A stretch of DNA of 64,000 nucleotides from an uncultured Pseudomonadales bacterium (GTDB lineage: Bacteria; Patescibacteriota; Microgenomatia; UBA1400; PJMF01), in NCBI GenBank assembly GCA_964457085.1, contig CAYWDM010000003.1, positions 186-64,185 on the forward strand, read 5' to 3'. This document shows, piece by piece, positions 9,348 through 29,553 of this stretch. The notes beneath the pieces are model-generated. The model was not told the origin of the DNA. It ran no database searches and saw only the letters and a list, made by a program, of their open reading frames with translations. Positions within the stretch are counted from its first letter, which is position 1, and each line of letters starts with the position of its first letter. The translations under genes and the position numbers were made by a program.

Positions 9348-10263
9348 TGAAAAAAATATTTCTACTCACAATTCAAATTCTGTCGTTTTTTTCTCATTTA
9401 TCGTACTGTTAGTTTTTGTGTTAGCTTCGTTTTTTGTACTACTACACAAAAAGAGTGATACATCAGTACATATTGTGTTTTGTGATGTCGGCCAAGGAGA
9501 TGCTATCTTGATATATCAAGGTTTCTTCCAAATACTAATCGATAGCAGCCGAGATGACAGAGTGCTAGCATGTTTATCCCAAAATATTCCCATTTGGGAT
9601 CAAACAATTGAGGTTCTTGTCATCACACATTTTGATGCAGACCACTTTGGTGGTGTCACAACACTACTCAAACATTACAGATTCACTCAAATTTTTGCCC
9701 CAAAACATACTTCAGATGGTTCTCGAGGTGCTGGGCAGGCAGCATCCCAAAACGCTACTGAGTTACCTTTTGGCTTTGAGCCGAAAGAGCCGTTTTTTGG
9801 GCAAACTGTGAGTTTTGCCTCTGGAGCGACTCTAACTTTCTTGCCAATTGTTCCCTTAATCCAGGCTAACAAACAAATCTTTCCTGAATTGGTATCTTCA
9901 AATCTTTCAGATAATGACACCTCGCTTGTGACATTATTTCAGTATGGAACACTACATTTTTTGAGCGTTGGCGACTTGGAAAAGACGGGTGAATCAGTCT
10001 TAACTTCTCTCATCGAGTTTGGCCCGATAGATATCTTTAAGGTCGGTCATCATGGGGCAAAGACCAGTTCAACGATACAATTTCTCCAGGCTATCAACCC
10101 AAGAATGGCGATAATAAGCTCTGGACGCGACAACAGCTACGGCCATCCCGCTCAGCAAACACTGGATCGGCTGGGTCAAATGGGAGCCACTGTGCTCCGC
10201 ACTGACTGGATAGGCACGATCGAATTTGTGAGTGATGGTGCTATATGGTGGTTGGCAAACTAA
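9340..10263 (+). CDS. comEC: ComEC C-terminal metallo-beta-lactamase domain protein (split comEC, second part)
   Basis: N-terminal TM then MBL fold motifs (HIVFCDVGQGDAILI; ITHFDADHFGG; VGHHGAKTS), typical of the ComEC C-terminal domain. Confidence 0.7.
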   Translation: MSNEKNISTHNSNSVVFFSFIVLLVFVLASFFVLLHKKSDTSVHIVFCDVGQGDAILIYQGFFQILIDSSRDDRVLACLSQNIPIWDQTIEVLVITHFDADHFGGVTTLLKHYRFTQIFAPKHTSDGSRGAGQAASQNATELPFGFEPKEPFFGQTVSFASGATLTFLPIVPLIQANKQIFPELVSSNLSDNDTSLVTLFQYGTLHFLSVGDLEKTGESVLTSLIEFGPIDIFKVGHHGAKTSSTIQFLQAINPRMAIISSGRDNSYGHPAQQTLDRLGQMGATVLRTDWIGTIEFVSDGAIWWLAN

Positions 10264-10831
10264 TGTGTTGTAACTACCTATGCAATTATTTAAAGAGCTG
10301 ATAACTACTGTTACATATTTTTTAACGGAATGCAAGTATTTATAGTTCATTTACTATAAATTTCGAGCATTACTCAAGTAAAAAGTTACTCAATTTGGCT
10401 AGATTTGTTAGTACATTTGCTCAAGCTATTGGTGAAAGAGACCTCAATGAGCTTTGCCTTGGATGTATGTGGTGCCACTTGTGGGTAGCATTTTCGTCAA
10501 ATAATTGTTAGAAAGTTGACCAGTACCCATGACTTTCTGGTGCTATTTTTAGTAGTTTAGTGGACATTTGTATGAGAGTATGACGTCACTGTTTATAAAA
10601 ACCAAATAGAATCCGAATAAGAAATGCAAACAATGCCAAAACGAGTAAAAAAATTACATCAATAAACTACTTAAATATGTTAATTATCAAAAGTATAAAT
10701 GAGTAAATAATGTATTCAAAATGTTCGGTATTTTTTTACCATTTTTACTTGAGTAAATTTGAGAAGTATCTCAAGAATAGCGAGGTTCGGTAACTAATGG
10801 CAGTAAGTGAGTTCGTGCTAGAATCAAACCC

Positions 10832-14349: not shown

Positions 14350-14355
14350 TATATG

Positions 14356-23780: not shown

Positions 23781-24686
23781 ATGAAGCAATTATCAAGATT
23801 AACAGTTTTTCATAACAGTCGTGGCCTGTGGATGATTACATTGTCAGCAGTTTGTTTTGGTTCATACGGTATTTGGAATCGGTTAATGGGAGGTCAGTTT
23901 GGTGAGTTTTCTCAGGCAACACTTAGAGGTTTACTCTTAGTACTCTTACTGTTACCAGTTTTATTGGCAAAAAAACTATGGCATCCAATACAGGCAAAGG
24001 ACTGGAGGTGGTTTTTAGCAGTCGCTCTGACTGGAGGTTTGAATCAAGCACCAATTTTTATTGCGTTTCAGCAACTCTCTGTGGGGATGGCTACATTTTT
24101 GTTTTACGCCGGTTTGACCTTGGCTGGATACATAGTAGGTTGGCTAGGATTTGGTGAGAAATTAGATAGCGTGAAATGGATCTCATTTGGGTTGGCTATG
24201 ATTGGAGTTGCCTTGTTGTTTGGGCTGAGTATTGATAGTTCAAATTGGTTTGGTGGAGTAATGGCAATTTTGGCAGGGTTAATGGGTGGCGTGGAGGTAA
24301 GTTTTACTAAAAAAATTTCTGGAACATATTCATCAATACAAATTATGCTGTTACTGTTTGTGGCGATGGTGATTGGAAATGGAATTTTAGCAATACTCTT
24401 CAAAGAAGTGTTGCCACTGCAATTTGCACTTCCCGCAGTAAAAACTGCATGGCTATCGCTGATCGCGTATGCGTTGGCACTGGTCATCGCAATGGCAGCT
24501 GTTGTGGAGGGGTATAAAACGACTGAGGCTAGTTTGGGTAGTATTGTGGGACTTTCAGAAGTAGTATTTGCGGCAATTTTTGGCTTGCTGGTATTTGGAG
24601 AGCAGTTAAGCATGGTCCAGCTAGCTGGAGGTGTATTAGTGACTTTGTCTGCTGCAATGCCAGTACTGTTTCAGAAAAAAACTTGA
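23781..24686 (+). CDS. EamA/DMT-family transporter
   Basis: ~10 predicted TM helices in two repeats; 301 aa. Confidence 0.7.
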   Translation: MKQLSRLTVFHNSRGLWMITLSAVCFGSYGIWNRLMGGQFGEFSQATLRGLLLVLLLLPVLLAKKLWHPIQAKDWRWFLAVALTGGLNQAPIFIAFQQLSVGMATFLFYAGLTLAGYIVGWLGFGEKLDSVKWISFGLAMIGVALLFGLSIDSSNWFGGVMAILAGLMGGVEVSFTKKISGTYSSIQIMLLLFVAMVIGNGILAILFKEVLPLQFALPAVKTAWLSLIAYALALVIAMAAVVEGYKTTEASLGSIVGLSEVVFAAIFGLLVFGEQLSMVQLAGGVLVTLSAAMPVLFQKKT

Positions 24687-24716
24687 GCGTGTATTTTATA
24701 ATCTCGTTTTGGTTCT

Positions 24717-24744
24717 AAAAAACCCGGCTTGTGGCCGGGTTTTA
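24717..24744. terminator. bidirectional rho-independent terminator
   Basis: aaaaaacccggc-ttgt-ggccgggtttt between convergent genes. Confidence 0.7.
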
Positions 24745-24768
24745 CATTTTCTGTGAATATGAATCTAA

Positions 24769-25047
24769 CTAGTCTTCGTCACTGGGATTTACTCCAAGTA
24801 GCCAAAGCACTGCTTCTTTCTTGTAGCGACGATCGCCACGAGAGTTGATTCTAATAGCGGGTAGTTTGCCACGTTTGCCCCAGCGCTTGATGGTTAGGGG
24901 AGAGACGCGCAATAAGTCTGCCACTTCACGTACAGTGAGCAAATCAGGTAAGTTAGCAATATCAAGCTTGGTGGCATCTGTCGCCAAGCCGGTTTTTTTG
25001 CTTTCAGTCATCATGTCAACAGCTTGGTTGGCAGGTTGGTCAGTCAT
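24769..25047 (-). CDS. excisionase/AlpA-family helix-turn-helix DNA-binding protein
   Basis: LLTVREVADLLRVSPLTIKRWGKRGKLPAIRI..RGDRRYKKEAV matches the excisionase-family (MerR-like) HTH domain; 92 aa. Confidence 0.6.
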   Translation of the reverse strand: MTDQPANQAVDMMTESKKTGLATDATKLDIANLPDLLTVREVADLLRVSPLTIKRWGKRGKLPAIRINSRGDRRYKKEAVLWLLGVNPSDED

Positions 25048-25347
25048 GTAGAGTCCCTTTCTCCTTTATTACGTTAATTCAAAAAATGTCGATCATTATT
25101 AGCTTTCAACCATTACAAATCAGGTCAAAAGCCAACAACTTCCGGGGTGAGGGGTGATCGATATGGATCAAATATTGGCTTATCTATATCTAAAGTAGCA
25201 GAGTGGAAAGAACTGGGTCAAGGGGGAGTTTGGATTAATTGAGTTTTTACATGAATTTGTTTCATTTTGCTCATAACTTGCACATCTAATATGTAAGTAG
25301 TATGCTACAAACCAGAGTGAGCCCATACTAGTGTTGAGGAGAGAAGT

Positions 25348-25602
25348 GTGATTAAAGTTGCATCCACGTCCCACTCTAAGGTCGACAGTCGATATTATTG
25401 CAGTGACATGATTTTTGCAAACGTATTGACTCGAATTAGTGAGTTGGGAAGCATGGTTGGTGTCAATGTACTTGACATCGATGGTGTTCTAGTCGAGCTG
25501 GAGGAAGATGCTGATGACAAGATGGTCATCTTTACTCTCAAGCACGAGCTTGGTCACAAACGTGACCAAGTGTGGCGATCAATCTGTAGATTGTATAGTT
25601 AG
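25348..25602 (+). CDS. possible small ORF in AT-rich accessory spacer
   Basis: 84-aa ORF followed by a hairpin+T-run terminator (~25648-25685). Weak coding evidence. Confidence 0.2.
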   Translation: MIKVASTSHSKVDSRYYCSDMIFANVLTRISELGSMVGVNVLDIDGVLVELEEDADDKMVIFTLKHELGHKRDQVWRSICRLYS

Positions 25603-25810
25603 GCAGTCGCTGCTTAATGACACAGTTTACAGAACTTATTTGAAGGGTCGTGGCGTTACAGCCATGACCCTTTTTTATGAAAAGTGCTTTTAAGACTTGC
25701 GTTTGCAATTTACATAACAAATACACACTGGTTCTTGCGTAAAACGTCCCATAGTATGATAATTATGCCATCATCAGCAATGGTGAAATCCGCTCTTTAG
25801 AGGTGAGTAC

Positions 25811-26086
25811 ATGAAGGTTCAGCTGTTGTATCTGAGTGCAGATACTGCACGACTACAGATTCATGGGTCAGAGAAAGAAATGATCCAACTCTTTGATGCA
25901 CATTTTTCTCGGACGGAGGTGCAAACACCCCAGTCAGTCGAATATGCTGTCAACGGAGACACATGCCGTATTTCGTGCGGACAGATAGTGGTATCTGGCC
26001 GAAGCAGTGTGGCTACAGTTCTTGAGTCAATTTACCGACTCACAGGCAGGCCTGAGAATGAGGCTGCTTTCTCGAGCGATGATTAG
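25811..26086 (+). CDS. small hypothetical protein, paralog family member 1
   Basis: 91 aa with strong RBS (agaggtgagtacATG) and own terminator at 26154-26184. Shares motifs (RLQIHGSEKEMIQLF; YRLTGRPENEAAF) with the next ORF. Confidence 0.45.
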   Translation: MKVQLLYLSADTARLQIHGSEKEMIQLFDAHFSRTEVQTPQSVEYAVNGDTCRISCGQIVVSGRSSVATVLESIYRLTGRPENEAAFSSDD

Positions 26087-26153
26087 CACGACCTACGTTG
26101 TTCCTTAACCAATCTGGTTTGTGGAACGTCATAGCGTTGTGATATTACGACTA

Positions 26154-26184
26154 CCCCGGCTTGCAAAGGTCGGGGAGTTTTTTT
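26154..26184 (+). terminator. rho-independent terminator
   Basis: ccccggc-ttgcaaaggt-cgggg followed by agttttttt. Confidence 0.7.
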
Positions 26185-26342
26185 AATTCAATTGCTTACT
26201 TCCAATCAACCTGTAATTTAAATCACAATTCACTAACGATTTTTTATCGGCAGTATAATAGGCTTGCGTGTTGATCAATCCGTATTTATACGGGTCTTTC
26301 CCAAGTAACAACTGGGTACTTATGTTTTAAGTTGGAGGTCGT

Positions 26343-26627
26343 ATGAGTGTGCAATTGCTAGAACCAAGAAGTAGTGAAGTTCGGCTTGGCATTCAAGGGT
26401 CAAGCGATGAGATTCTTACTCGATTGAAGGCAAGTGATTCGTTGTTCTTGGCGAGTCCACAGCCTGCACAAGGTACCTTGTTTTACTATGGTGCCTCAGG
26501 TCAAATCACTGTTGTGGCTGGTCAGATTACCGTAGTCGGTAATGAAAGTGATCGGCGAATGGCTGTGGAAGCAGTGTACGAAATGGTGGGTCGCCCCACC
26601 AATGAAGCCGTATTTGTGGTTTCATGA
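26343..26627 (+). CDS. small hypothetical protein, paralog family member 2
   Basis: 94 aa; RLGIQGSSDEILTRL and YEMVGRPTNEAVF parallel member 1. Own terminator 26692-26721. Confidence 0.45.
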   Translation: MSVQLLEPRSSEVRLGIQGSSDEILTRLKASDSLFLASPQPAQGTLFYYGASGQITVVAGQITVVGNESDRRMAVEAVYEMVGRPTNEAVFVVS

Positions 26628-26691
26628 AGAAAACTATTGTGGATACCGGTTATTTCTTAGAAATGATTCGGTGTTTGAAGTAGCAGGCGAA

Positions 26692-26721
26692 AGGCCTTGG
26701 ATTCGTCCAAGGCCTTTTTTT
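26692..26721 (+). terminator. rho-independent terminator
   Basis: aaggccttgg-attcgt-ccaaggcc + ttttttt. Confidence 0.7.
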
Positions 26722-26800
26722 ATTTCTAAAACAAATTTTTTTTGATAAATTGCTGCAAATTTGATCATTGAAGTATAATTTATATTGAATTCCAACTGTT

Positions 26801-27061
26801 TTGGAGGGCACTATGCCTAAGATTGAAAGTGTTGAGAAGTTGGATGGTGAGGTGAGATTTCACCTCACCGGAGTTACGTACGCTCAAATAGAAGAGTTGC
26901 TTCGTAAGAAATGCCAGGGATCAGAGCAAGTGCGCGTGTTTTACTGGCAGGAGCATCGAGTGAGCGTATTTCAACCTGGAGCTGAGGTGCTTGTTGATAT
27001 CAACAGCACACAAGCAGAATTCCAGGAAATACTGGAGGGTTGGCTCAAGGAATTGGGCTAA
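26801..27061 (+). CDS. small hypothetical protein, divergent paralog family member 3
   Basis: 86 aa; VRFHLTGVTYAQIEELL parallels RLQIHGSEKEMIQLF. Own terminator 27074-27108. Confidence 0.4.
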   Translation: MEGTMPKIESVEKLDGEVRFHLTGVTYAQIEELLRKKCQGSEQVRVFYWQEHRVSVFQPGAEVLVDINSTQAEFQEILEGWLKELG

Positions 27062-27073
27062 ATCCTTAATCTA

Positions 27074-27108
27074 GACTCTGGTGCCAGAAGTGGTGCCAGA
27101 GTCTTTTA
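27074..27108 (+). terminator. rho-independent terminator
   Basis: gactctgg-loop-ccagagtc + ttttac. Confidence 0.6.
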
Positions 27109-27385
27109 CTTTGCACTGAAAAAAATTTACAACAACCAAATATTGACATATTCATATGTTATAGGATAATACTACATATGTGTTGAAAGTAGCTGCCAAG
27201 TGGTAGCCAGTCAGTTTCCCTTCAATAATTGTGGGAATCGTGCCTGGCAGCTTGGGGTTGCGACTCCGGGGTTTCGTCTCCGGTTTCAACATATCTTCAT
27301 AACTGCATTCCGGAGGGCCCTTTGGAATGCAGTTTATTTTTTTGTATGCACATTTTTTATCGAACTACTCGATTTGACCTGAACC

Positions 27386-27417
27386 AAAAACCCCGCCTGG
27401 TTTCCCAGGACGGGGTT
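27386..27417 (-). terminator. rho-independent terminator after rplL
   Basis: Minus strand aaccccgtcctgggaaaccaggcggggttttt. Near-identical copy at 43046-43083. Confidence 0.75.
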
Positions 27418-27448
27418 AGTTGTTTGCTTAAATTAAGCGTGAGTTCAA

Positions 27449-27850
27449 TTACTTGAGCTCGACGACGCAACCAGCATCTTCCAAGAGTTTCTTGGCTGCT
27501 TGTGCATCTTCTTTCTTAGCACCCTCAAGCACGGTTTTAGGAGCGGACTCGACGAAAGTCTTAGCCTCACCCAAACCAAGTTCAGCCTTTAATTGGCGAA
27601 CTGCTTTAATAGCACCGATTTTGTTTGAACCAGCATCTTTGAGGATGACGTCAAACTCAGTTTGCTCTTCAACTGGAGCAGCTGCTGCTGCACCTGGCAT
27701 AGCACCCATCATCATTGGAGCTGCAGCGGAAACGCCGAACTCATCTTCCAAAGCTTTAACGAGCTCTGAAACATCCATGAGGGATAACTTTTTAACTGCG
27801 TCCACAATGCTCTGGACTGGAGCGGAAAGGGTTTTCTTGTCTTCTGACAT
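27449..27850 (-). CDS. rplL: 50S ribosomal protein L7/L12
   Basis: 133 aa; N-terminal dimerisation segment, Ala/Pro/Met-rich hinge, C-terminal domain ([34 protein letters not shown]). Confidence 0.9.
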
Positions 27851-27891: not shown

Positions 27892-28401
27892 TTAAACTGC
27901 TTGTTTATCGGCAATTGCCTTTAGGGCATACACCAAGTTACGAGTACCAGCCTGCAAGACATTGACCAAGCCATATGCTGGACCGTTAATTCTACTAATT
28001 AAGAGTGAGATCAATTCTTTCTTGCCTGGCAACTTACTGAGAGCTTCAACTTCACCGATTGAGAGAGTAGCATCGCCCATGACACCTTCTTTAATATCAA
28101 GTTTCTCGGTCTCTTTTTTGAACTCAAAGAGTTTTTTAAGAGCACTGACCTCATCTTGAAACGAGAAGATGATGGCGTTCATACCCTCGAGGGATTTACT
28201 GACCTTGCCTTTACCGATAGCGATATCGATCAAAGTATTTTTACTGACATACATCTCACCACCAACTTCTCGCAGACTGGCACGAAGTTTGTTCTGTTGG
28301 TTCACACTGGTGGTGGAGTAATCGACGACCACAGCTGATTTAGCTCGGCTCAATTTCTCTTGCAGCAAGGCGATTTGACTTTGATTGTGTTTGTTTGGCA
28401 T
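27892..28401 (-). CDS. rplJ: 50S ribosomal protein L10
   Basis: 169 aa; directly upstream of rplL; L10-like N-terminal region ([25 protein letters not shown]). Confidence 0.85.
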
Positions 28402-28788: not shown

Positions 28789-29124
28789 TTACGAGCCGCA
28801 ACCTAAGGCGCCATCAACTGGCGGGAAACAATCGTCACTTGCTGACATTGCAATCACTGGGATGAGTACCACTGCGGCACTCACGCCCAACGCTTTCAAC
28901 GCATGACTCTTGCCTTTAGGACAACGGTTTTGCATGTTGGTGATGGCTGTGCCAGCGCCAGCGGCGTTCAAATCTGCGGCGAAAAGTTCACTGCAAGCCT
29001 GGTCGCCTTCGCAGGGAAGGCGGTGTGGGCGACGACCTGCGGCAATAGCCGTGTTGGCGTGCTTTGAGTAACGGGCGATGAACCAAGCGATCAACGTGCT
29101 GGGTAATGCAAGAAGTTTTTTCAT
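28789..29124 (-). CDS. small secreted Cys-rich hypothetical protein encoded in a GC-rich (~54%) segment
   Basis: 111 aa with signal peptide and 6 Cys. Local GC clearly above the ~40% surroundings. Confidence 0.4.
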   Translation of the reverse strand: MKKLLALPSTLIAWFIARYSKHANTAIAAGRRPHRLPCEGDQACSELFAADLNAAGAGTAITNMQNRCPKGKSHALKALGVSAAVVLIPVIAMSASDDCFPPVDGALGCGS

Positions 29125-29136
29125 GTTACCTCCAAA

Positions 29137-29553
29137 CTATCTGATTGGGATTGACCAACCAGCTTCGCTGTAGGTGTAGCCGTCAGCATTAAGGGAAATT
29201 TCACCCTCATGTTTGACTGCTAAGCCACCTGCAACGGTGTACCATTGGTTAAACTTGCCACCTTGTTCGGGCAGACCATAACCAAATGTCTCGACGCAAT
29301 GGTCGTAAAAACGATCAATGTAGATTGCAATTCCATCAGCTATTTTTTCATCGCTGACATACAACTGGTCATGCACGATGTACATACGGTCAAGCGTAAT
29401 ATCGGCTGGCTTTGAATCAATGGGGGCACAGCCAGCACTAGCCAATAGTGCACATAGCACGATGAATAGGACTATCCCCACCATAAGATAGTAGAACCAG
29501 CGATTTTTCTCTCCTGGACCAAGTCCAGGATTGTACAGACGGTGCTTTTTCAT
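29137..29553 (-). CDS. hypothetical lipoprotein
   Basis: 138 aa; TM/signal followed by lipobox-like LASAGC. Confidence 0.45.
   Translation of the reverse strand: MKKHRLYNPGLGPGEKNRWFYYLMVGIVLFIVLCALLASAGCAPIDSKPADITLDRMYIVHDQLYVSDEKIADGIAIYIDRFYDHCVETFGYGLPEQGGKFNQWYTVAGGLAVKHEGEISLNADGYTYSEAGWSIPIR

Follow-up and report, generated by a model that had tools for sequence, protein, structure and literature searches.

Related systems

Tandem, co-oriented runs of small genes for acidic, soluble proteins, whose members are gained, lost or replaced and which neighbour a small HTH gene ('aca'), are found in the orphan immunity clusters of polymorphic toxins and in anti-CRISPR loci. The TBP domain has the topology S1-H1-S2-5-H2. 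Monopartite TBP-domain proteins occur in some Euryarchaea (PMC3597702). BldC is the founding member of a family of small MerR-like winged-HTH proteins (PDB 6AMK/6AMA); many BldC-like proteins carry excisionase-like labels in databases, and direct repeats in promoters are bound by proteins of this type (PMC5859096). The locus described here lies next to rplL in a 64-kb window (the whole stretch of DNA that was analysed). It is best, and rather likely, explained as a variable slot of the chromosome, reaching from the rplL terminator to the promoter of an HTH gene, which is filled in five genomes by an array of independent small genes of an acidic orphan family.

A variable slot beside rplL

The interval is framed by the following features.

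27892-28401, minus strand: rplJ (confirmed)
27449-27850, minus strand: rplL (confirmed)
27396-27409, minus strand: terminator of rplL, right boundary of the variable slot (terminator scan)
25192-25221, minus strand: sigma-70 promoter driving the HTH gene; marks the left edge of the variable slot (nhmmer iteration)
24769-25047, minus strand: BldC-like MerR-type winged-HTH protein of 92 aa, a core gene of the clade (Pfam, NCBIfam and PDB matches)
24719-24743, strand not assigned: terminator stem-loop lying between two convergent genes, those of the EamA transporter (plus) and the HTH protein (minus)

The last of these, listed as a plus-strand site with an 11-bp stem of which 6 pairs are GC, probably also ends transcription of the HTH gene. 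In about 50 related loci rplL is likewise followed by the HTH gene, across a gap of 160-3999 bp whose cargo is unrelated between genomes and includes PIN/Phd toxin-antitoxin pairs (L009, L047), an IS200-like transposase (L064), a VTT-domain protein and an ATP-grasp enzyme. The cargo here is four monocistronic small genes (ORF84, P1, P2 and P3), each with its own RBS and terminator and all on the plus strand; rplL and the HTH gene are both on the minus strand. Between P3 and rplL, only 27383-27417 gave blastn matches in related loci, and these were weak (24-35 nt, E 2e-4 to 9e-3); only those in L007 and L058 are positionally equivalent, because the match in L088 lies far from its rplL.

The initial annotation had remarked that rpoB, expected after rplL, was missing. 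No ORF of rpoB or rpoC size occurs anywhere in the 64-kb window, and a tblastn search of it with an RpoB query found nothing, yet rpoB was not adjacent to rplL in any Patescibacteria locus fetched, and its absence is therefore not a local disruption. The label of accessory patch given to the region was apt, in that the slot is hypervariable across the clade and the small-protein family does not extend beyond a very narrow lineage. The proposed AT-rich, low-coding spacer of ~750 bp (25048-25810) is, on the other hand, not notably AT-rich, because its GC content is 0.40 compared with 0.42 for the window, nor is it empty, since ORF84 lies in it, as do the leader and promoter that precede the HTH gene (about 25048-25221). 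The rplL-HTH interval is probably an ordinary hypervariable accessory slot of the Microgenomatia (Patescibacteria) chromosome and not what remains of a mobile element.

The HTH gene and the mobile-element interpretation

The HTH protein had been described as an excisionase/AlpA-family DNA-binding protein of 92 aa. Its length and domain were read correctly: it matches Pfam HTH_17 (PF12728, E 2.4e-10, 40.9 bits against a cutoff of 27), MerR_1 and MerR, and with 34.8 bits it passes the cutoff of 28.8 for TIGR01764 'excise'. The role of excisionase is not supported, the gene being a clade-wide core gene whose nearest solved relative is BldC (6AMK/6AMA, E 1.5e-8 over residues 34-88). The HTH_17/TIGR01764 domain is itself generic and common to MerR and BldC regulators. 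The score against NF033787 HTH_BldC (44.8 bits) is below the cutoff of 77, and the protein is for that reason named BldC-like and not a BldC ortholog. Similarly to Streptomyces BldC, it is small, with a single wHTH and lacking the MerR coiled-coil or an effector domain; it differs in being a Patescibacteria core gene linked to rplL and in having an N-terminal extension, which is 33 residues long and contains a conserved KKTGRxxDAxKLD motif. The gene was found downstream of rplL in ~50 of ~60 Microgenomatia loci (MAG loci) at 75-90% identity, with a dN/dS of 0.008-0.03, below that of L10/L12. It is a clade-wide, vertically inherited core gene outside any mobile element.

The promoter of the HTH gene is composed of a -35 element TTGACC (25221-25216), an 18-nt spacer and an extended -10 element TGcTACTTT (25200-25192), and is near-invariant, being present upstream of the gene in 49 of 52 loci with the consensus TTGACCcA...TCTGcTACttT (nhmmer iteration and alignment). 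It is followed by a leader:

25048-25185, minus strand: 5' leader (~140 nt) of the HTH gene; contains a CUCACC motif and, near the promoter, a hairpin/palindrome region

The position of the TSS would follow from the -10 element. Identity to the four closest relatives is 92-94% over 25130-25237, as compared with ~80% for coding DNA, and most of 45 distinct HTH leaders contain a hairpin whose stem sequences differ (mean MFE -5.4 vs -3.5 in shuffles).

It had been suggested that the region is a remnant integrated element, in which case the HTH protein would be the excisionase of a former mobile element or prophage and the small genes its cargo. As in the excisionases of the lambda Xis, AlpA and TorI type, the protein is small and has the HTH_17/TIGR01764 winged-helix domain; beyond passing TIGR01764, it also matches PHROG excisionase families, and members of its cluster are labelled 'excisionase family DNA binding protein' in IMG. 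The slot holds mobile cargo in other genomes, namely the IS200-like transposase and toxin-antitoxin pairs mentioned above, and an imperfect 21-nt direct repeat (17/21) at 25169-25189 and 27137-27157 brackets the four small genes. In contrast to phage and ICE excisionases, however, the HTH gene has no integrase partner, att sites or mobile-element context; it is clade-wide, vertically inherited and under very strong purifying selection, is syntenic with rplL in the ~50 genomes whatever the slot contains, and is preceded by a conserved promoter of its own. Pfam matched no integrase, recombinase or transposase on genes within +/-10 kb, and there is no tRNA within 10 kb, the nearest lying at 14355 and 55423. 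A search for att sites, which the initial annotation had proposed along with that for an integrase, gave no convincing flanking repeats: the lone 21-mer is not duplicated in the four related arrays, and chance alone can yield two copies from a 9-nt seed. The region shows no compositional anomaly, the GC content of the small genes (0.47-0.48) equalling that of core genes (0.478 for rplL), and no relatives of the small proteins were found on viral contigs or in BFVD. The mobile-element interpretation is largely refuted and must be considered highly improbable.

Another explanation is that the array forms the regulon of the adjacent BldC-like regulator, which would bind the shared divergent intergenic region and control the small genes, these in turn acting in the regulator's pathway. 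The first gene of the array is always divergent from the HTH gene, their promoters being back-to-back within about 100-300 bp, and a TAGATA-TAGATA direct repeat is found where the TSS of the HTH gene is predicted, direct repeats in promoters being what BldC-type proteins bind (PMC5859096). However, ~50 genomes without the family, whose slots have unrelated cargo, also conserve the HTH gene and its promoter, so that the association of the HTH gene with the array is positional, and an operator-like motif shared upstream of the array genes was not found. We therefore regard such a regulon as unlikely.

Four independent small genes

The variable slot contains the following features between the HTH promoter and the end of P3.

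25348-25602, plus strand: ORF84, 84 aa, GTG start, SD GAGGAGAG
25811-26086, plus strand: P1, acidic small protein of 91 aa, P1-type orthogroup
26154-26175: terminator of P1, strong intrinsic
26260-26342, plus strand: 5' UTR of P2 with two stem-loops (leader comparison, RNAalifold on 4 sequences)
26343-26627, plus strand: P2, acidic small protein of 94 aa, P2-type, in all five arrays
26689-26718: terminator of P2, strong intrinsic
26813-27061, plus strand: P3, acidic small protein of 82 aa (86 aa from TTG 26801), strain-specific
27073-27104: terminator of P3, strong intrinsic

The earlier description of three tandem small ORFs, each with its own RBS and terminator, agrees with the SD reading and the terminator scan, to which ORF84 is added as a fourth gene. 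All four ORFs have an SD, a codon usage that is the best of the six frames and a dedicated strong terminator (-19 to -24 kcal/mol); the region has 10 terminator-like sites, as against 2.5 +/- 1.6 in shuffles. The spacing of 170-260 bp, together with the separate RBS and strong terminator of every gene, shows that this is not an operon.

The three ORFs had also been described as paralogs with shared motifs. This is clear for P1 and P2 (34% identity, E 8e-12). P3 shows no similarity to either in BLASTP and does not have the GRPxNEA motif, although it has the N-terminal R-[LF]-x-[IL]-x-G motif in common with them; profile comparison with the family by hhalign, on the other hand, gave E 2.5e-3, a score reached by 0 of 200 shuffles, and among 308 ORFs of this slot from other genomes the family HMM ranked P3 first of the non-members. 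A remote paralogy of P3 with P1 and P2 is supported by these profile comparisons. A search of a word-indexed database of 5.8 billion entries returned no P3 homolog except itself. ORF84, which is called as a gene in public assemblies and is followed by a terminator hairpin of ~-24 kcal/mol at about 25642-25680, has its best codon log-odds in its own frame and no homologs in the fetched loci; its hhalign score with the P1/P2 family is marginal (reached by 3 of 200 shuffles), and this strain-specific orphan is possibly a very divergent fourth member of the array.

P1 has orthologs in P0004/L086_a and L089_a (47-48% identity; dN/dS 0.14-0.26), and P2 in P0003, P0006, P0012 and L086_b (47-54%; dN/dS 0.085-0.185). 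Both are real genes under purifying selection. The stem-loops of the P2 leader keep their positions in orthologous leaders while their stem sequences differ, a conservation that is suggestive only, because the 4 sequences amount effectively to one independent comparison. The possibility that the small ORFs, or some of them, are non-functional, being either spurious or decaying pseudogenes, draws on the lack of orthologs of P3 and ORF84 anywhere and on the codon score, which separates true from spurious ORFs of such length weakly (95th percentile of spurious ORFs 0.138; P3 and ORF84 0.10). It is therefore from gene-like signals and a weak profile similarity that these two are taken to be coding. 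Against a lack of function stand the conservation of P1/P2 in five genomes with dN/dS of 0.09-0.26, a confident AF2 model of P2, the SD, codon usage and terminator found for all four, and the score of P3 above shuffles in the family profile, and it is extremely unlikely that these ORFs are without function.

Distribution and evolution of the family

An exhaustive profile HMMER search of 1.84e9 representatives retrieved 4 true extra clusters only, and a further search added one. The family was seen in four other metagenomic genomes only (L086, L088, L089 and L090), always in the rplL-HTH slot, in which the HTH gene (minus) is followed by 2-3 called small ORFs (plus) and rplL (minus). The four have the same MurL-WecG-TrmB-EamA genes as flanks where the contig reaches; that of L090 starts inside the HTH promoter core. 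All five arrays were assembled from metagenomes, within one narrow lineage (L12 at least 94% identical), and sampling is thus thin. A P2-type gene is present in all five, and a P1-type gene in three, being absent from L088 and L090; further members come and go: P3 and ORF84 in this genome, types B, C and D in the others. The family and the B type are linked by hhalign (0 of 200 shuffles reach the score), as are B and C+D (E 2e-4), and on these profile links the P1, P2, P3, B, C and D types appear to constitute one superfamily.

P1 and P2 are 48-54% identical between genomes, slightly lower than the neighbouring EamA (55%), and because their divergence is only slightly above that of EamA between the same genomes, there is no clear signal of an arms race for these two core members. 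The array genes are vertically inherited in place. The initial annotation had held that a region syntenic in related genomes, with paralogs from a well-known housekeeping family, would speak against its view; the region is indeed syntenic in the relatives that bear the family, whereas the paralogs match no known housekeeping family. Profile searches of the small proteins, which it had recommended, matched no Pfam, NCBIfam, PHROG or PADLOC model while linking P3 remotely to the others. As far as sequence comparison can tell, the P1/P2 family is an orphan of a very narrow lineage.

Predicted fold

The pI is 4.3-5.5 in 14 of 15 array proteins, one B-type member having 6.8, with net charges from 0 to -10; no TM segments and no matches to enzyme or nucleic-acid-binding families were found among them. 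Structure prediction, also recommended at the outset, gave a confident AF2 model of P2 (pLDDT 86.6, pTM 0.77), a TBP-like/helix-grip alpha+beta domain. In the model, strands at 12-18, 35-40, 44-49, 53-58 and 61-65 and helices at 21-30 and 68-82 are preceded by an extra N-terminal strand at 2-5. The predicted fold is beta0-beta1-alpha1-beta2-5-alpha2, followed by an invariant, flexible Y-x3-G-R-P-x-N-E tail, and the invariant residues (E76, Y79, G83, R84, P85, N87, E88) cluster in helix 2 and in this C-terminal tail. Foldseek returned no significant neighbour (best E 0.03, TM ~0.5). The N-domain of RNase HIII (3vn5/4py5) superposes over ~70 columns with an rmsd of 2.7-3.0 A (TMq 0.51, Foldseek probability 0.97-0.99), and other fold-level neighbours are the OGG1 N-domain, the phosphohexomutase C-domain and BamC.

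The order of secondary structures and the two-layer alpha+beta architecture predicted for P2 are those of TBP-domain/helix-grip proteins, from which it differs by the extra strand and the conserved GRPxNE tail. The family is also acidic rather than basic, and the likeness is at the level of fold only, no PDB or Pfam profile match linking P1/P2 to known members. It could be argued that the small proteins are stand-alone TBP-domain nucleic-acid binders, perhaps forming homo- or heterodimers with a TBP-like saddle: the predicted beta1-alpha1-beta2-5-alpha2 equals the TBP domain topology, the best fold-level neighbours are TBP-like/helix-grip domains, and monopartite proteins with this domain have a precedent in Euryarchaea (PMC3597702). 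However, all Foldseek E values are at least 0.03 with TM ~0.5, a sequence-profile link is lacking, the helix-grip fold is common and functionally promiscuous, and the acidity of the proteins (pI 4.3-5.5) argues against a saddle that binds DNA or RNA, which makes this function improbable. A more far-reaching proposal, to which we give a low probability, is that P1/P2 may be a new bacterial family of stand-alone TBP-like (helix-grip) proteins, expanded as a fast-turnover tandem array in one Patescibacteria lineage. Its members would dock through the invariant Y-x3-G-R-P-x-N-E tail at the C-terminus and could, for instance, be acidic proteins that mimic or inhibit a conserved partner, either ribosomal or nucleic-acid-binding. 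If true, monopartite TBP-domain proteins, so far reported only in some Euryarchaea, would extend to bacteria.

Possible functions of the array

A toxin-antitoxin, anti-defence or phage-derived small-protein system had been proposed for these genes. Models for toxin-antitoxin and defence systems in Pfam, NCBIfam, PHROG and PADLOC matched neither ORF84, P1, P2 and P3 nor any of the 7 family members, PADLOC assigning the HTH protein alone (generic mad1, E 4.9e-11); there was no BFVD match at E<0.01, and no viral contig carried the family motif, the single match being due to chance. The proposal thus found no toxin-antitoxin, defence or phage model and no viral relative to sustain it. An addiction module made of P1/P2 and other members could account for the small size of the proteins and for the joint presence of P1-type and P2-type genes in three of the five arrays, and genuine PIN/Phd pairs occupy the same slot elsewhere. 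In comparison with these type II systems (VapBC/Phd-PIN; L009, L047), the array genes are not bicistronic, each having its own RBS and strong terminator at a spacing of 170-260 bp, and are devoid of toxin or antitoxin domains; unlike a toxin and its antitoxin, the members are all homologous, acidic and of one predicted fold, and P2-type genes persist in L088 and L090 where the P1-type is absent. A two-component module of this kind is very unlikely.

By analogy, the P1-P3 array may be likened to orphan immunity-gene clusters and anti-CRISPR loci, as it would share with them the tandem, co-oriented arrangement of small genes for acidic, soluble proteins, members that are gained, lost or replaced from one close genome to the next, and an adjoining HTH gene. 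It differs in having no toxin, CRISPR, phage or mobile-element context, in that its genes are monocistronic with P1/P2 under ordinary purifying selection, and in that the HTH gene is an independent core gene, not specific to the small genes and present in ~50 genomes whose slot lacks the family.

On the preferred explanation of a chromosomal variable slot, the slot in this genome and its four close relatives would be a tandem array of independently transcribed small genes (82-95 aa, with acidic, soluble, single-domain products), the family would have arisen by duplication and divergence, and each gene may be tuned via its own promoter and structured leader. It is conceivable, if still doubtful, that these proteins are stoichiometric modulators which bind other proteins, much as inhibitors, immunity proteins or adaptors do. 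A conserved partner would then be docked by the helix-2 patch together with the conserved tail, and partners that vary would be followed by the variable members; no partner gene for P1/P2 was seen.

A candidate small RNA

Downstream of P3, beyond the stretch covered by the initial annotation and inside the same slot, lies one further feature.

27143-27340, plus strand: candidate strain-specific small RNA gene (promoter, structured body, intrinsic terminator)

It showed no match in Rfam even at E<=5 and no similarity in related loci. Its putative promoter, TTGACA-16-GATAAT (27143-27170), matches at 11 of 12 positions, and its terminator is at 27301-27334. The body of ~120 nt is highly structured, with an MFE of -69.6 kcal/mol (z = -6.1), a stability reached by 0 of 200 shuffles.

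Gene organization between rplL and the HTH gene

The gene for a 92-aa HTH protein, initially described as an excisionase, lies downstream of rplL on the same strand, and the interval between the two holds four small genes in the opposite orientation:

27892-28401, minus strand: rplJ
27449-27850, minus strand: rplL
26813-27061, plus strand: P3, 82 aa
26343-26627, plus strand: P2, 94 aa
25811-26086, plus strand: P1, 91 aa
25348-25602, plus strand: ORF84, GTG start
24769-25047, minus strand: HTH gene, 92 aa, about 2.4 kb downstream of rplL

A Shine-Dalgarno sequence could be read in front of each of the four small genes, and each is followed by a private strong terminator (hairpin and T-run, -19 to -24 kcal/mol), the region containing 10 terminator-like sites vs 2.5 ± 1.6 in shuffled sequences. 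The initial annotation is thus partly confirmed and its features are real: the three small ORFs that it reported do each have a ribosome-binding site and a terminator of their own. As for the paralogous array, P1 and P2 are clear paralogs (34% identity, E 8e-12), but P3, without BLASTP similarity to either, is only a remote one, and the fourth gene, ORF84, had been missed. The 750-bp AT-rich, low-coding spacer did not hold up, as 25048-25810 has a GC content of 0.40 vs 0.42 for the window and is occupied by ORF84 and by the promoter and leader of the HTH gene. An Rfam scan of 24650-27500, at the gathering cut-off and at E≤5, returned no family.

A BldC-like regulator linked to rplL

The HTH protein matches the HTH_17, MerR and generic TIGR01764 'excise' domain models and scores below the cutoff of the NCBIfam BldC model. 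In the PDB it is related only to two BldC-DNA complexes, 6AMK and 6AMA (E 1.5e-8), and annotation as integrase- or excisionase-like is frequent among BldC-like proteins (PMC5859096). By tblastn, the protein is 75-90% identical in about 50 related loci, where the gene is always found downstream of rplL, on the same strand and 160-3999 bp away. Between the window and its closest relatives the protein is 95-96% identical, with a dN/dS of 0.008-0.03 as compared with about 0.06 for L12 and about 0.08 for L10. Iterated nhmmer searches recovered a near-invariant sigma-70 promoter (TTGACC, an 18-nt spacer and TGcTACTTT) upstream of the gene in 49/52 Microgenomatia loci, with the following elements in the window:

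25221-25216, minus strand: -35 element of the HTH promoter
25200-25192, minus strand: extended -10 element of the HTH promoter

Over the segment 25130-25237, identity to the closest relatives is 92-94%, vs about 80% for coding DNA. The near-invariant promoter and a dN/dS of about 0.01-0.03 mark the HTH gene as encoding a core regulator, probably an essential one, whose linkage to rplL extends over the class. BldC-like, rplL-linked and driven by this promoter, it encodes one of the most conserved proteins of Microgenomatia and thereby a candidate for a global regulator or an architectural protein; transcription control has hardly been studied in this phylum. Gene and promoter, a by-product of the analysis, are arguably more useful than the small-protein family.

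The promoter is followed by a leader:

25048-25185, minus strand: HTH leader of about 140 nt, with a promoter-proximal hairpin/palindrome and a downstream CUCACC motif

The stem sequence of the hairpin varies between genomes, and the hairpin is reported from per-sequence folds only, because RNAalifold on 48 leaders, in an alignment that was too gappy, gave no consensus structure. The CUCACC(G)G motif downstream of it is common to many loci, and a TAGATA-TAGATA direct repeat is present at the predicted transcription start. The leader element may act as RNA or serve as a BldC-type autoregulatory operator. A TTGATC/GATC motif considered as a link between the leader and the array promoters was not enriched and was rejected.

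Taxonomic placement and the position of rpoB

L7/L12 of the window is 75-86% identical to that of metagenome-assembled genomes (MAGs) labelled Pacebacteria, Woesebacteria or Patescibacteria, which places the organism in the class Microgenomatia. Many public MAGs (loci L006, L007, L012, L015 and others) are titled 'uncultured Pseudomonadales bacterium' despite a clearly Patescibacteria-like rplL region, a mismatch that suggests systematic taxonomic mislabelling of these submissions.

The initial annotation had pointed to the lack of rpoB after rplL, where it would be expected. Using as tblastn query an RpoB sequence from an outgroup locus, its identity confirmed by Pfam, a match just downstream of rplL was obtained only in four non-Patescibacteria outgroups (L069, L071, L072 and L074), with none in any Patescibacteria locus fetched or anywhere in the 64-kb window. 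Both rpoB and rpoC are absent from the window and from within 8 kb of rplL in every Patescibacteria locus fetched (L006-L068). In this sample, the absence is a trait of the phylum rather than a local disruption.

An insertion hotspot, with no sign of a mobile element at this locus

In other genomes the interval carries unrelated cargo, which bears out its description as an accessory patch:

Locus L047, 978-1603: PIN and Phd/YefM (toxin-antitoxin genes)
Locus L009, 6630-7296: PIN (toxin-antitoxin gene)
Locus L064, 8543-9115: IS200-like Y1 transposase
Locus L012, 8529-9035: VTT/DedA-type membrane protein
Locus L006, 8826-10280: ATP-grasp enzyme

The remaining cargo consists of assorted proteins without an assigned family. 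From the rplL terminator to the HTH promoter, the interval is an insertion hotspot in this clade, and its lineage-specific cargo makes it useful for comparing how reduced CPR genomes acquire novelty.

An excisionase beside a diversified array of small genes had suggested the remnant of an integrated element. No Pfam match to an integrase, recombinase or transposase was found on any gene within ±10 kb, and no tRNA within 10 kb. An imperfect 21-nt direct repeat (17/21; 25169-25189 and 27137-27157) does flank the four small genes, one copy lying in the HTH leader and the other overlapping the -35 element of a small RNA candidate promoter; as an att-like scar it was rejected, since a second copy was not found in the four related arrays and the match is within chance expectation, and it is probably due to chance or local duplication. 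The small genes have a GC content of 0.47-0.48, the same as rplL (0.478), and in 4/4 ORFs the annotated frame has the best codon usage, so that composition gives no sign of a recent foreign origin. With an HTH gene that is rplL-linked throughout the clade (about 50 loci), has a low dN/dS and a private promoter, and has no recombinase or tRNA nearby, the excisionase or integrated-element reading is rejected; at this locus, the label 'excisionase family' on a neighbour of orphan genes does not mark a mobile element.

A second patch lies upstream of rplJ:

28789-29553, minus strand: two orphan genes, 111 aa and 138 aa

Neither gene has a Pfam match or a tblastn match in any related locus, and the product of the 138-aa gene is predicted from its translation to carry, at the N-terminus, a hydrophobic stretch with a lipobox-like LLASAGC at its end. 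GC content peaks locally at 0.53 (28800-29199), and one JGI contig with an identical L12 has other genes in this place. Of the two patches, this one appears the more foreign.

Distribution and evolution of the small-protein family

A HMMER search of 1.84 billion representative proteins with a P1+P2 profile (E≤1e-3) gave 11 matches, namely the two queries, four proteins of 92-95 aa and five long repeat-rich proteins judged spurious by inspection; one more member was gained by further alignment-based search. In word-indexed searches for homologs, P2 and P3 each retrieved nothing but themselves. Neither ORF84, P1, P2 and P3 nor any of the seven family members matched Pfam, PHROG, NCBIfam or PADLOC, and together with a PDB profile search these comparisons give no known family. 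All members map to metagenome contigs with the order HTH gene (minus strand), two to three called small ORFs (plus strand) and rplL (minus strand), flanked by the MurL-WecG-TrmB-EamA genes of the window wherever the contig is long enough; that of L090 begins within the HTH promoter core. The array-bearing genomes have an L12 at least 94% identical to that of the window.

Table. Composition of the array in the window and in four related metagenomic loci (B, C, D and P2' are member types found in the relatives).
Window: ORF84-P1-P2-P3
L086: P1-P2
L089: P1-B-P2
L088: C-B-P2
L090: D-P2'-P2

Because the P1 and P2 types form distinct orthogroups, the duplication that gave rise to them is older than these genomes. 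Amino-acid identity between the window and L086 is 96% for the HTH protein, 94% for L12, 89% for L10, 67% for TrmB, 55% for EamA, 52% for P2 and 48% for P1, which puts the small genes at the fast end of the local evolutionary range, not dramatically so. In the closer pairs dN/dS is 0.085-0.185 for P2, 0.14 for P1 and 0.36 for B; these are real genes, subject to purifying selection.

Profile comparison linked the family to P3 (E 2.5e-3) and to B, with scores reached by 0/200 shuffles in both cases, and B to C+D (E 2e-4); for ORF84 the relationship was marginal (3/200 shuffles). P3 also ranked first among 308 non-member ORFs from the same interval of other genomes scored with the family HMM. By these comparisons, the array appears to be a single diverged superfamily whose members have been gained, lost and replaced. 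The core of the P3 terminator (window 27073-27104, CTCTGGTGCCAG...TGGTGCCAGAG) is similar to the terminator found behind P2 in the relatives (GGCTCTGGCA...TGCCAGAGCC; L086 ~9915-9945, L088 and L089 ~10355-10385), whereas the window's own P2 terminator differs, which hints that P3 may have arisen or been inserted between P2 and its ancestral terminator. The small proteins form an orphan family that is new and very narrow. Their setting is of a known type, tandem expansion within one lineage in a variable slot of the chromosome, and nothing so far points to a new kind of system.

RNA features

Two further features of the interval were found at the RNA level:

26260-26342, plus strand: P2 leader, two stem-loops at the same positions as in orthologs, with different stem sequences (equivalents at L086 9478-9562, L088 9922-10003 and L089 9922-10003)
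27143-27340, plus strand: candidate small RNA gene between P3 and rplL, with promoter, structured body and terminator

In P2 and its orthologs, a conserved GCUUGC..UGAyCAAUCC box lies in the 5' UTR upstream of the two stem-loops. In sequence, the stems of the window have almost nothing in common with those of the other three loci, a difference that looks compensatory in what amounts to one independent comparison. The promoter of the candidate small RNA (27143-27170) agrees with consensus at 11/12 positions, its structured body of about 120 nt (MFE -69.6 kcal/mol, z = -6.1) is enclosed by a long-range helix, and the terminator at 27301-27334 is strong. As no Rfam match (E≤5) and no similar sequence in the related loci were found, it appears to be strain-specific, like the adjacent P3.

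Predicted structure and possible function of the small proteins

Structure prediction, as proposed in the initial annotation, gave a confident AlphaFold2 model of P2 (pLDDT 86.6, pTM 0.77) from the seven-sequence alignment. The model has the order β0-β1-α1-β2-β3-β4-β5-α2, followed by a short C-terminal turn or helix of lower confidence. Foldseek against the PDB (two models) and BFVD gave nothing at E<0.01, the best neighbours at the fold level being TBP-like/helix-grip domains: the RNase HIII N-domain (rmsd 2.7-3.0 Å over about 70 columns, TMq about 0.5), the OGG1 N-domain, the phosphohexomutase C-domain, BamC and the TrmE N-domain. The predicted topology of P2 matches that of a TBP domain, any homology being putative, and Pfam and PDB profile searches were empty. 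Resemblances to Rpo11/RpoL and to HPF-like structures were weak (TM 0.3-0.4) and were rejected, as was HPF in the PDB profile search with the family alignment (E 0.65), the remaining matches of which were noise.

Among the array proteins, 14/15 are acidic (pI 4.3-5.5, one B-type member having a pI of 6.8), which argues against nucleic-acid binding, and 15/15 are predicted to be soluble, without transmembrane segments. Invariant positions comprise the hydrophobic core and a cluster (E76, Y79, G83, R84, P85, N87 and E88) that corresponds to a Y-x3-G-R-P-x-N-E tail. The favoured proposal, at low confidence, is that the small proteins are stoichiometric protein-binding modulators (inhibitor-, immunity- or adaptor-like) that would dock through this tail patch; the account of how the locus is built and has evolved is much more secure. 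A toxin-antitoxin system, one of the possibilities initially raised, is disfavoured by the monocistronic genes, the homology among all members and the absence of any TA domain found, and phage-derived or anti-defence genes by the lack of a mobile or viral context and by an HTH gene that is independent of the array; the Y-x3-GRPTNEA pattern had a single chance match on viral contigs, in an unrelated high-GC ORF. Its confidently predicted fold and well-defined conserved tail make the family tractable for interaction screens.
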